Source: Escherichia coli
Lineage (GTDB): Bacteria > Pseudomonadota > Gammaproteobacteria > Enterobacterales > Enterobacteriaceae
Assembly (NCBI RefSeq): GCF_048403405.1
Contig: NZ_CP183129.1
Length of the DNA: 64,000 bases
Strand: one strand, 5' to 3'
This document shows, in pieces, positions 50,056 to 52,013 of the stretch (position 1 is its first letter; each line of letters opens with the position of its first letter). The notes beneath the pieces are model-generated. The model was not told the DNA's origin and searched no databases. It saw nothing but the letters and a program-made list of their open reading frames with translations. The position numbers and the translations under genes were made by a program.

Positions 50056-51279
50056 ATGGCTGGAGGAACGAACAAATTAAGCGATACATCGTTGCGTAAG
50101 ATGCTGGGGAGGGAAATCGATAGAGATAGATTTTATGCTGACGGTGATGGATTGAGTATCAAGGTGTCAAAAATTGGCGTTCTTACTTGGTATTTCTCTT
50201 TCCGGATTGGTGGGCGTGAATCGTATTCACAGCGTGTTAAGCTTGGAAACTACCCGGATCTTTCTCTGAAAGCTGCGCGCGAGAAACGTGAACAGTGTCG
50301 AGCATGGCTTGCTGAAGGTAAAAATCCAAAGCATCGGTTAAATGTGGCAATACATGAAACACTCAAACCAGTGACGGTAAAAGAGGCTCTGGATTACTGG
50401 ATCAGAGAATACGCCGTTTACAAGCGCACGAATGTTGATAAACACATTGAGCAACTGAGGAAGCATATTTTCCCCTATATAGGTGATTATCCGTTATCAA
50501 TGTGCGAAACCCGGCATTGGCTGGAGTGTTTCGCTAGAGTAAGGAATGACGCTCCAGTGGCAGCTGGTTATTTGCTGCAGATGTGTAAGCAGGCTCTGAA
50601 GTTTTGCCGCGTACATCGTTATGCGGTTAGCAATGCTCTGGATGACCTGACTATCGATGATGTTGGTAGAAAACAGAATAAGCGCGATAGGGAACACAGC
50701 AGTCAAGAGTTAGCAGATATTTGGCAGGAATGTTCAGGTAAGAAATTTAAACCATACTATTCATCGTTGTTGCGTCTATTGGTGGTGTTTGGATGTCGAA
50801 CCCAGGAGCTTCGGTTGTCACGTATTACAGAGTGGGATTTAAAGGATTGGATCTGGACAGTGCCTAAAGAACACAGCAAAGGCGGAGAGAAGATATTGCG
50901 CCCTATTCCAGTGGTAATACGCCCATTCATCCAACAGCTTATAGAGCAACACAAAAACTCAGGTCTTTTGTTGGGTGAAATAAAGAAACCAGAAGCTGTC
51001 AGCCAATGGGGGAGGATGATATATAAGCGTCTGGGGCATATTGAATCGTGGACACTTCACGACCTGCGCAGGACGTTTGCTACCACACTAAATAACATGG
51101 GGGTTGCACCACATGTTGTTGAACAGCTTCTCGGTCACACATTAGGTGGTGTAATGGCCATATACAATCGTAGCCAGTACTTACCAGAAAAACTAGACGC
51201 TCTAAATAAATGGATGGAACGGCTTGAGGTTATTTCTGGTCAGTATTCAAATGTAAAAATATTGAAGGTAGCGAAATGA
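50056..51279 (+). CDS. int: tyrosine site-specific integrase (P4-like, N-terminal arm-binding domain)
   Basis: ORF 49975-51279; start at MAGGTNKLSDTSLRKMLGREIDRDRFYADGDGLSIKVSKIGVLTWYFSFRIGG... ; C-terminal catalytic region HDLRRTFAT...LGHTLGGVMAIYNRSQY. Confidence 0.9.
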   Translation: MAGGTNKLSDTSLRKMLGREIDRDRFYADGDGLSIKVSKIGVLTWYFSFRIGGRESYSQRVKLGNYPDLSLKAAREKREQCRAWLAEGKNPKHRLNVAIHETLKPVTVKEALDYWIREYAVYKRTNVDKHIEQLRKHIFPYIGDYPLSMCETRHWLECFARVRNDAPVAAGYLLQMCKQALKFCRVHRYAVSNALDDLTIDDVGRKQNKRDREHSSQELADIWQECSGKKFKPYYSSLLRLLVVFGCRTQELRLSRITEWDLKDWIWTVPKEHSKGGEKILRPIPVVIRPFIQQLIEQHKNSGLLLGEIKKPEAVSQWGRMIYKRLGHIESWTLHDLRRTFATTLNNMGVAPHVVEQLLGHTLGGVMAIYNRSQYLPEKLDALNKWMERLEVISGQYSNVKILKVAK

Positions 51280-52013
51280 AAAAGATAAGCATCCCTGAGC
51301 GTATATATTATCCATTGCCTGAAGCAGCAAAGAAGCTGGGATGTACGCTTAATGATATATATCATTTTGCTGCTATAGGTGCTTTGAATATTTCTGTTTA
51401 TTTTCCAAACTGTCATCCATGTAAATCGCTAGTTATACCAAAATCATTAGTTGAAAATATTGATGTTGATTCAGGTGGGATGTTGCAAGGGGATCGCTGG
51501 GTAATTACAGGGATGAAGCCTGTTGGTAGCGATTTTGAATGGGTAAATTATTTTGGTGTGGCTTCTTATCTTGCAAAGAATTTTTGCGGTTTCTTCTATC
51601 TAAATCGGGAAAGTTTTTCTGAACTTGAATTTATTGGCAATGATGCAAGGATAGTATCATCTTTTTTTTCAACTCGTCCTGAATCAGAAAACTGGGAATG
51701 TCAAATTATGAGTGATGGGGCTATTGAGATCGACAGAAGGTTTTTATGTGTAATGGCTAAGGATTTGGAGCATATCAAAGATGTTGGAACCATGCCTGGA
51801 AGAAAAATGGGAGAATCGCCAAAAACTCTTGCGAAGAAAGCTGAGTTGATCCCTGCATTAATCAAACTAATTCCAGAAATGGATGATATAGATATTGGAA
51901 CTGCTCCAGTTGCTAAAGTGATCGCTGTTTTAGAGGCTGCGGCAGCGATGAAAGGGGTGTTTCTTCCCGCAACAGATAAGAATACGTGGGCTAAATACTT
52001 AGGGCGAACGTGA
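51276..52013 (+). CDS. hypothetical protein, translationally coupled to int
   Basis: 245 aa; ATGA overlap with int stop; N-terminus (ERIYYPLPEAAKKLGCTLNDIYHFAAIGAL) looks helix-turn-helix-like; no recognisable catalytic motif. Confidence 0.6.
   Translation: MKKISIPERIYYPLPEAAKKLGCTLNDIYHFAAIGALNISVYFPNCHPCKSLVIPKSLVENIDVDSGGMLQGDRWVITGMKPVGSDFEWVNYFGVASYLAKNFCGFFYLNRESFSELEFIGNDARIVSSFFSTRPESENWECQIMSDGAIEIDRRFLCVMAKDLEHIKDVGTMPGRKMGESPKTLAKKAELIPALIKLIPEMDDIDIGTAPVAKVIAVLEAAAAMKGVFLPATDKNTWAKYLGRT

Follow-up and report, generated by a model that had tools for sequence, protein, structure and literature searches.

A cassette-borne gene between integrase and alpA in a capsid-forming satellite of Escherichia coli encodes a candidate regulator of alpA

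In the 64,000-nucleotide stretch of Escherichia coli DNA analysed here (contig NZ_CP183129.1; hereafter the window), the gene ORF245, which we call X, lies between the integrase gene int and the regulator gene alpA of a phage-inducible chromosomal island (PICI). Comparison of related islands indicates that X is a self-contained, exchangeable cassette between int and alpA in one clade of enterobacterial PICIs. Our favoured, if still tentative, reading is that this cassette encodes a sensor that binds DNA and regulates the alpA promoter, and it seems more likely, judging from sequence, that X tunes the induction switch of the satellite than that it aids recombination by the integrase. The regulator reading is based on the invariant position of X, a pair of sites linked to the cassette, the fixed 26-nt geometry of these sites, the co-variation of X tails with sites, the modular variability of the protein and the fold of its N-terminal domain. 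The genes and sites concerned lie in the window as follows:

50056..51279, plus strand: P4-type tyrosine integrase gene (int), 407 aa, with Pfam matches to Arm-DNA-bind_3 (1.4e-17), Phage_integrase (6.1e-16) and Phage_int_M; phrog_1; RefSeq WP_021561896.1.
51264..51279, plus strand: int/ORF245 coupling junction, comprising a GAAGG Shine-Dalgarno-like motif within the end of int and an ATGA stop/start overlap.
51276..52013, plus strand: ORF245 (X), 245 aa, 27.2 kDa, pI 6.0 (5.99), GC content 38.6%, ATG start.
52010..52019, no strand assigned: operator-like palindrome 1, GTGATATCAC, spanning the stop codon of ORF245.
52031..52040, no strand assigned: operator-like palindrome 2, a second GTGATATCAC at a distance of 21 bp from the first and 26 nt 5' of the alpA leader hairpin.
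52103..52324, plus strand: alpA, encoding an AlpA-family regulator of 73 aa; Pfam Phage_AlpA (PF05930), E 1.4e-14.

ORF245, annotated in RefSeq as WP_001553506.1 'hypothetical protein', is a real gene: a profile hidden Markov model (HMM) recovers 323 family clusters and the AlphaFold2 model has a mean predicted local distance difference test score (pLDDT) of 83.9. The TGA of int (51277-51279) overlaps the ATG of ORF245 (51276-51278) as ATGA (gcgaaATGAaaaag), and the GAAGG motif (51264-51268) is placed 7 nt 5' of the ORF245 start. An AGG-type motif 7-8 nt before the start of the gene in this slot was observed in all compared loci (L numbers below), including that of the DUF6387 cassette described later. 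The overlap of X genes with int is 4 nt in most loci and 8 nt in L018; it is replaced by a gap of 2 nt in L004 and of 13 nt in L051. The translational coupling that a preliminary description of this DNA had proposed was thus confirmed by sequence and recurs across the family, and it is consistent with co-translation of X with Int. The alpA gene, which that description had correctly recognised as a separate AlpA gene, starts 89 nt 3' of ORF245. The counts of int and ORF245 are identical, each being present in 18 of 5,426 complete E. coli genomes. With 38.6% GC, ORF245 fits a foreign cassette, int having 44% and the remainder of the island about 50%.

The ORF245 protein and its profile gave no usable match in Pfam (not even at E<=1 for the protein), NCBIfam, PADLOC or PDB sequences, and PHROGs yielded a single weak match to the N-terminus. 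A word-indexed search of 5.8 billion proteins returned 17 X clusters from E. coli, Klebsiella and Serratia, while the profile HMM search of 1.84 billion representatives returned the 323 clusters (50% identity clusters) at E<=1e-3, 49 of them at E<=1e-30, all so far from Enterobacterales satellites. Profile and structure searches, which the preliminary description had suggested, place ORF245 in an uncharacterised family with a winged-helix N-terminus and without a match to any characterised family. The AlphaFold2 model consists of a beta-alpha-alpha-beta-hairpin unit at residues 11-55, a beta-rich middle extending to about residue 170, a disordered linker (171-178) and three helices (182-241). 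What had looked like a helix-turn-helix (HTH) at the N-terminus is, in the model, a winged helix of the Xis/MerR type that matches the DNA-binding Xis/AlpA/MerR folds in structure. The domains are placed as follows:

Residues ~9-56 (nt ~51300-51443): conserved winged helix.
Residues ~57-177 of ORF245: hypervariable, acidic, beta-rich middle.
Residues ~178-245 (nt ~51807-52010): conserved three-helix C-terminal domain.

Mean pairwise identity among 40 full-length members is 50% in the N-terminal domain, 20% in the middle and 46% in the C-terminal domain, and the median net charge of the middle is -10. Several relatives have swapped parts: P0045 has another centre, P0047, P0048 and P0052 have another C-terminus, and P0102 and P0135 share the N-terminal domain only. 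These comparisons indicate that the family is modular: the head is constant, the body varies and the tail is of a few types. Its diagnostic signature combines an N-terminal RxYYPLxEAAxKLGC...D..H, a C-terminal ...TWxKYLGR and the pair of decamers formed by the two palindromes.

Relationships of the domains to known families were weak throughout. HTH_17 was detected in just 2 of 23 X N-terminal domains, below cut-off, and hhalign of X against the local AlpA profile gave a probability of 0.5%. No Pfam, PHROG, PDB sequence or fold match beyond the winged helix relates X to Stl/Rpr, which have an XRE-type HTH. The C-terminal domain was considered as a second AlpA-like domain, and this was ruled out by an hhalign probability of 0.2% with no Pfam or PDB match. 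A 14-nt identity, GAAAGGGGTGTTTC, that had suggested such a domain is found at 51950-51963 in ORF245 and at 52210-52223 in alpA, encoding KGVF in both; since hhalign finds the ORF245 and alpA domains unrelated, it is either chance or a small recombination patch.

The position of X is invariant. Every member with a readable context directly follows a P4-type integrase of 405-407 aa, usually with the 4-nt overlap, and alpA follows X wherever downstream sequence existed. The order int, X, alpA was found in at least four satellite types and at four att sites (fis, cspD/clpS, rcnR/thiM and a Serratia site). In K. aerogenes X belongs to a fis PICI with an AAA_25 replicase, and in E. coli O157:H7 to a cspD/clpS PICI with TerS and a capsid gene; X also follows int in Serratia, in metagenomic and Sequence Read Archive (SRA) contigs, at E. 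coli rcnR/thiM and in IMG/VR contigs. P0102 and P0135 likewise follow an integrase, and P0135 is then followed by alpA. One SRA contig (L019, 811-2379) contains two tandem, divergent X paralogues of 261 and 247 aa between int and alpA, and its alpA is divergent.

The comparison of int-proximal genes in related islands, also suggested beforehand, showed that the same slot holds X, an unrelated gene or nothing. The other occupant is:

L011 3824-4678: DUF6387 (PF19924), alternative slot occupant, with a 4-nt overlap with int and followed by alpA.

L018 and L011 have integrases 97% identical and AlpA proteins 91% identical, and their slots contain X (259 aa) and DUF6387 (284 aa), respectively; their DNA ceases to be similar about 15 nt short of the int stop codon and is similar again from about 30 nt ahead of the alpA start. 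At the rcnR/thiM site, one integrase is accompanied by DUF6387 in 50 E. coli genomes, by an X of 239 aa in UMNF18 and by an X of 264 aa in ST130. Integrases 87-88% identical (L009, L015, L016) pair with X alleles that differ in their centres or C-termini, and X alleles just 28-41% identical lie behind integrases 68-97% identical. In cspD PICIs with a 412-aa integrase the slot is empty, leaving a 420-bp int-alpA gap in which no X remnant was found. DUF6387 as a distant relative of X was ruled out by profile-profile alignment (hhalign probability 0.5%), and ORF245 has no Pfam DUF6387 match.

These data bear on the proposal, made in the preliminary description, that X is a recombination directionality factor (RDF) with an extra domain. 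More broadly, X could be an RDF or integrase accessory whose Xis-like domain bends att DNA or contacts Int, its extra domains having a regulatory role. The invariant place of X immediately after int, with start/stop coupling, speaks for this, and relatives that have only the N-terminal domain in common keep the post-int position. Set against this, either X or the unrelated DUF6387 is found behind integrases that are 97% identical, X alleles vary widely behind similar integrases, and such a gene is missing from islands whose alpA, primase and att logic are related. No conserved X-associated site was found in the att arms, where unrecognised ones are possible, the pair at 52010-52040 being the only conserved X-linked sites. 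X is not a member of the Phage_AlpA, HTH_17 or Xis profiles and, as had been pointed out, is far larger than Xis or AlpA: with 245 aa and a near-neutral charge it is unlike the small basic RDFs, typically <100 aa. Moreover, alpA is needed for induction, including excision/circularisation, in EcCIMP1, EcCICFT073 and EcCIEDL933 (PMC6092414; bioRxiv 10.1101/2022.09.08.507074). Since near-identical integrases carry X or DUF6387, and since no X-linked sites lie near att, X does not appear to be an integrase-specific directionality factor; the version with an extra domain is unsupported, and we regard a role of this kind as very improbable.

DUF6387 forms 57 homologue clusters across Enterobacterales and also occurs in an L036-type context; it adjoins AlpA in the K. 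pneumoniae element ICEKp258.2 (PMC10763509). PADLOC gave no match for it. The islands show mosaic breakpoints: that in the window is 97% identical to that of L011 (rcnR/thiM) from about 33 nt inside alpA (52136 onward), while int, X and the alpA 5' end differ. In EcCIMP1, the small open reading frame EcCIMP1_002 in the int-alpA gap was considered as a relic of the X C-terminus and ruled out, the three coding-strand frames giving no HMM match.

The X cassette brings with it a pair of sites. A pair of GTGAWWTCAC decamers occurs in all of the approximately 20 distinct canonical X loci; their centres are separated by 21 bp (20-22), and the first sits on, or at most 2 nt from, the X stop codon. The pair is kept even though the X proteins have diverged to 31-60% identity, some sharing just 31-40% with ORF245, and the 11-nt spacer is unconserved. 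Symmetric variants occur (GCGATATCGC in L047; GTGAATTCAC in L004 and L039), and some loci have an imperfect second decamer. The distance from decamer 2 to the alpA hairpin is 26 nt in all loci, through unconserved sequence ending in an nnnAAT hexamer. Three such decamers are present in the window against 0.33 expected, the third, at 59700 in the protease gene, being probably due to chance. Searching IMG/VR with the exact 31-nt pattern (decamer pair and spacer) gave 11 matches. Eight of them mark the end of an X gene, with alpA following after about 95 nt in each case; the remaining 3 have no adjoining X gene, two being located within tandem repeats of 21 nt.

Several other owners of the decamers were considered. 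PICIs with the DUF6387 cassette or an empty slot contain no decamer within 2 mismatches, despite an AlpA with the same CRTTRY recognition helix. The decamers were therefore ruled out as AlpA autoregulatory sites, and they belong to the X cassette rather than to AlpA because they are missing where the recognition helix is the same and X is absent. They were also ruled out as att-arm sites, being located about 2.2 kb from attL with none near either att copy. CRP sites (TGTGA-N6-TCACA) and lambda operator half-sites (TATCAC) were dropped because the spacing does not fit.

The pair might instead be an RNA element, the two copies forming a stem that serves as a stabiliser or processing site of the int-X transcript, with X unrelated to it. 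This stretch of the window forms a perfect 14-bp hairpin when folded, and self-complementary copies can of course always pair. A stem would allow covariation, however, whereas it is the sequence itself that is conserved; in L004, L038 and L039 the copies pair poorly with one another, yet each retains GTGA..TCAC half-sites; and no T-run follows the decamers, none of which was called a terminator. This pattern of variation argues for recognition by a dimeric protein over an RNA stem, and we consider the RNA element very improbable.

The sites vary together with the X tail. Four X C-terminal types go with four repeat types: the canonical tail with GTGAWWTCAC twice; the P0047-type tail with the palindrome GTGGGAATTCCCAC, which is present at all 4 loci of this type and at no other of the 52 loci compared; the L019-type tail with AAACTCTCC twice, 21 bp apart; and the L051-type tail with the inverted repeat GCAAGTTAGG/CCTAACTTGC. 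All four types share one N-terminal domain, so that the tail is a better candidate than this domain for reading the sites, although the physical linkage of tail, sites and alpA confounds the comparison. The C-terminal coding part of X and alpA were seen to be swapped as a block (L018 2496-3140 compared with L012, 94%) in islands whose integrases are about 70% identical.

Between the decamers and alpA are a putative promoter and a leader hairpin:

52057..52068, plus strand: candidate -10 elements of the alpA promoter, TATTAT (52057-52062) and CAATAT (52063-52068), as suggested by eye.
52067..52096, plus strand: alpA leader hairpin (ATGCTCTCG, loop, CGAGGGCAT), the 3' arm of which contains the alpA Shine-Dalgarno sequence.

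Inspection by eye showed that the nnnAAT hexamer abuts the 5' arm of the hairpin in all loci. If this hexamer is the -10, decamer 2 would be at about -43 to -34 and decamer 1 two helical turns upstream, the pair replacing the -35 region. In place of the decamers, the DUF6387 cassette offers a TTGCAC -35-like hexamer, again read by eye. The hairpin is present whatever the slot content, and a T-run follows it in most other loci. Across 13 loci (the window, L004, L007, L010, L011 with DUF6387, L013, L021, L026, L027, L033, L038, L040 and L047) none of the 8 pairs is lost, compensatory double changes are seen in 5, and a single cell is broken. Folding of 52005-52110 gave a minimum free energy of -34.3 kcal/mol (z -7.1). 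Transcripts from the alpA promoter may start without the 5' arm, and read-through from int-X would include it, which would shield alpA from the constitutive transcription of int; alternatively, the hairpin may be a target of helper-dependent control. An in-frame ATG is found 36 nt before the annotated alpA start, coinciding in many loci with the 5' arm (52067-52102), so that automated callers may choose different alpA starts. Some callers missed or shortened alpA (L009, L016).

Our model of X as a regulator of alpA is as follows. X would be made constitutively together with Int and would bind the two decamers as a pair of dimers on one helix face, setting the activity of the alpA promoter, in which the decamers, two helical turns apart, would replace the -35/upstream region. 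This promoter would be the switch that starts excision, replication and packaging of the satellite, and the hypervariable middle domain would be the input, responding to a helper-phage product. As to the sign of regulation, our first choice would be a repressor relieved by the helper, following the logic of Stl in Staphylococcus aureus pathogenicity islands (SaPIs), while a helper-dependent activator bound beside the -35 would fit the geometry equally well. We infer from sequence that X itself binds the sites, which of its domains does so, what the sign of regulation is and that the middle domain senses phage. A bolder version, which we hold to be distinctly doubtful, would make X the helper-phage sensor gating alpA in this subset of PICIs, a counterpart of Stl assembled from unrelated domains, with its own operators and delivered as a plug-in cassette, the C-terminal domain being a new GTGAWWTCAC-specific module.

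A number of observations weigh against X as a regulator of alpA. A consensus scan of the plus strand found no strong sigma-70 promoter before alpA. The conserved domains are near-neutral (median pI 6.7 and 7.5), few basic or polar residues occur in the recognition helix predicted for the N-terminal domain, and the C-terminal domain matched no known DNA-binding family (Pfam, PDB, hhalign). Block inheritance of X tail, sites and alpA could mean that the co-variation of tail and sites partly reflects linkage. X is optional, the slot holding DUF6387 or nothing elsewhere, so that it cannot be a general induction mechanism; indeed, the functional PICIs EcCICFT073 and EcCIEDL933 have been described with int, alpA and rep only (PMC6092414; bioRxiv 10.1101/2022.09.08.507074). 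Finally, immune systems are reported from the 5' or 3' ends of PICIs (PMC11364771), and a fast-evolving, optional X would also fit such a location.

This last point leads to the second proposal of the preliminary description, that X is accessory cargo. X would then belong to the 5' variable region of the PICI as an anti-phage, interference or exclusion protein, with a variable domain that recognises phage components and with the HTH and decamers either controlling its own expression or, in the case of the decamers, being bound by something else. Besides the immune systems at PICI ends, an exchangeable slot on near-identical backbones that is sometimes empty or filled by DUF6387, a hypervariable and acidic middle domain, the tandem paralogues of L019 and a GC content deviating from that of the rest of the island would all agree with such a protein. 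No enzymatic or effector domain was detectable in X, however, and PADLOC gave no significant match for ORF245 and four relatives, the N-terminus of P0014 matching the small HTH protein mad1 weakly (E 0.014). Cargo would also leave unexplained why sites 3' of the gene lie at a fixed 26 nt from the alpA -10-like element and hairpin, and why each C-terminal type brings its own repeat to the same place. The proposal is partly right, since X behaves like an exchangeable cassette. Its main shortcoming is that the cassette has operator-like sites of its own, whose distance from the alpA promoter region is fixed and which suggest that the satellite's own switch is being regulated. We consider cargo possible, if somewhat unlikely, and prefer the reading of X as a regulator of alpA.

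The host element is, by its sequence, a 15.3-kb capsid-forming PICI at the 3' end of fis, as it matches the descriptions of the EcCIEDL933 kind of capsid-forming PICI (bioRxiv 10.1101/2022.09.08.507074) and of the fis site, reported for thousands of 'fis PICIs' (PMC10111431). Its bounds were taken from strain 4621 (L001), which is 100% identical to the window over 6.2 kb and in which 80-nt perfect direct repeats (12002-12081 and 27287-27366, 100% identical) lie 15,285 bp apart, the right copy spanning the fis 3' end. The att consensus of fis PICIs, TACGGCATGAACTAA (PMC10111431), is present in the repeat in reverse-complement orientation.

49801..49880, no strand assigned: attL identity block (left 80-nt repeat; fis 3' end and terminator); the right copy, at ~65086-65165, is just outside the window.
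50009..50031, plus strand: doubled GTGCAGTCAGT motif upstream of int, recurring near the right island end (L001 27260-27366).

A 'doubled motif' is mentioned in the attP of fis PICIs (PMC10111431), and the doubled GTGCAGTCAGT motif at both island ends probably represents integrase arm-type sites, to which Int would bind. Past alpA the gene order is YlcI/YnfO (minus strand), Icd-like, DUF4222, D5/primase and three hypothetical genes, followed by genes for an HK97-type capsid, prohead protease, portal, connector, HNH, TerS and TerL. The hypothetical genes (56197-57807) encode 86 aa on the plus strand and 169 and 258 aa on the minus strand, and none has a Pfam or PADLOC match; with Tai anti-phage systems of PICIs reported 'adjacent to pri' (PMC11364771), they are candidate defence or interference genes by location. 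An Rfam scan of 49700-58100 gave nothing above gathering scores.

Some relatives of the island are altered at its left side. In E. coli MS 69-1 (L002, 5061-6247) the island alpA abuts a truncated acrE, a deletion having taken the acrE 5' end, acrS, yhdU, yhdJ, int and ORF245, which leaves the remaining island unable to excise. Strain 4621 has an IS1 between acrS and yhdU (L001 10036-10733) that is not in the window, and in strain MS6198 the yhdJ beside the island is a pseudogene.

Gram-negative PICIs, including the capsid-forming ones, are widespread gene-transfer agents. AlpA is their master activator and is needed for induction (PMC6092414; bioRxiv 10.1101/2022.09.08.507074); a helper phage has to switch on alpA, by a route described as not known, and whether Gram-negative PICIs possess a repressor is called 'unclear' (PMC6092414). 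The X family offers a concrete handle on this question. If X regulates alpA, cassette exchange would explain a changed helper specificity of near-identical satellites, and if it is a sensor, swapping the cassette would re-programme which phages induce the satellite. If X is instead a defence gene, it would add a new family to the 5' hotspot. In both cases the integrase-cofactor reading is removed and the family gains a diagnostic signature. The fis satellites, the capsid-forming PICIs, control by AlpA and the variable 5' region are already published; the X family, the operator pair and the cassette logic were not described in the literature searched, which did not cover Fillol-Salom 2022 Cell.

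The closest known systems to X are the winged-helix proteins of the Xis/AlpA/HTH_17 group, such as Pukovnik Xis (4j2n), the GIsul2 AlpA-family excisionase (8c3t) and RdfS (8dgl). X differs from these in its 245 aa with two further domains, in being near-neutral rather than basic, in lying below Pfam thresholds, in its lack of co-variation with the integrase and in the true AlpA encoded next to it. DUF6387 shares with X the identical slot, the 4-nt overlap with int and the alpA that comes next, but has an unrelated profile and no GTGAWWTCAC sites. Compared with the PICI 5' accessory (immune) region (PMC11364771), X is likewise next to int, exchangeable, fast-evolving and optional; unlike that region, it has no significant defence-model match or effector domain, and its conserved sites lie on the alpA promoter region. 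From Stl/Rpr of SaPIs, X is separated by the lack of a detectable sequence or fold relationship, by its transcription towards the regulated gene, by being optional among related PICIs and by a regulated gene that is the activator alpA, repression by X being hypothetical. Like Stl/Rpr, however, X adjoins int and is co-oriented with it (for the Stl arrangement, PMC6092414), has a predicted DNA-binding-type domain at the N-terminus, a highly divergent remainder and allelic diversity on similar backbones, and is followed by operator-like sites, putatively occupied by X, that lie between it and the genes initiating the cycle.

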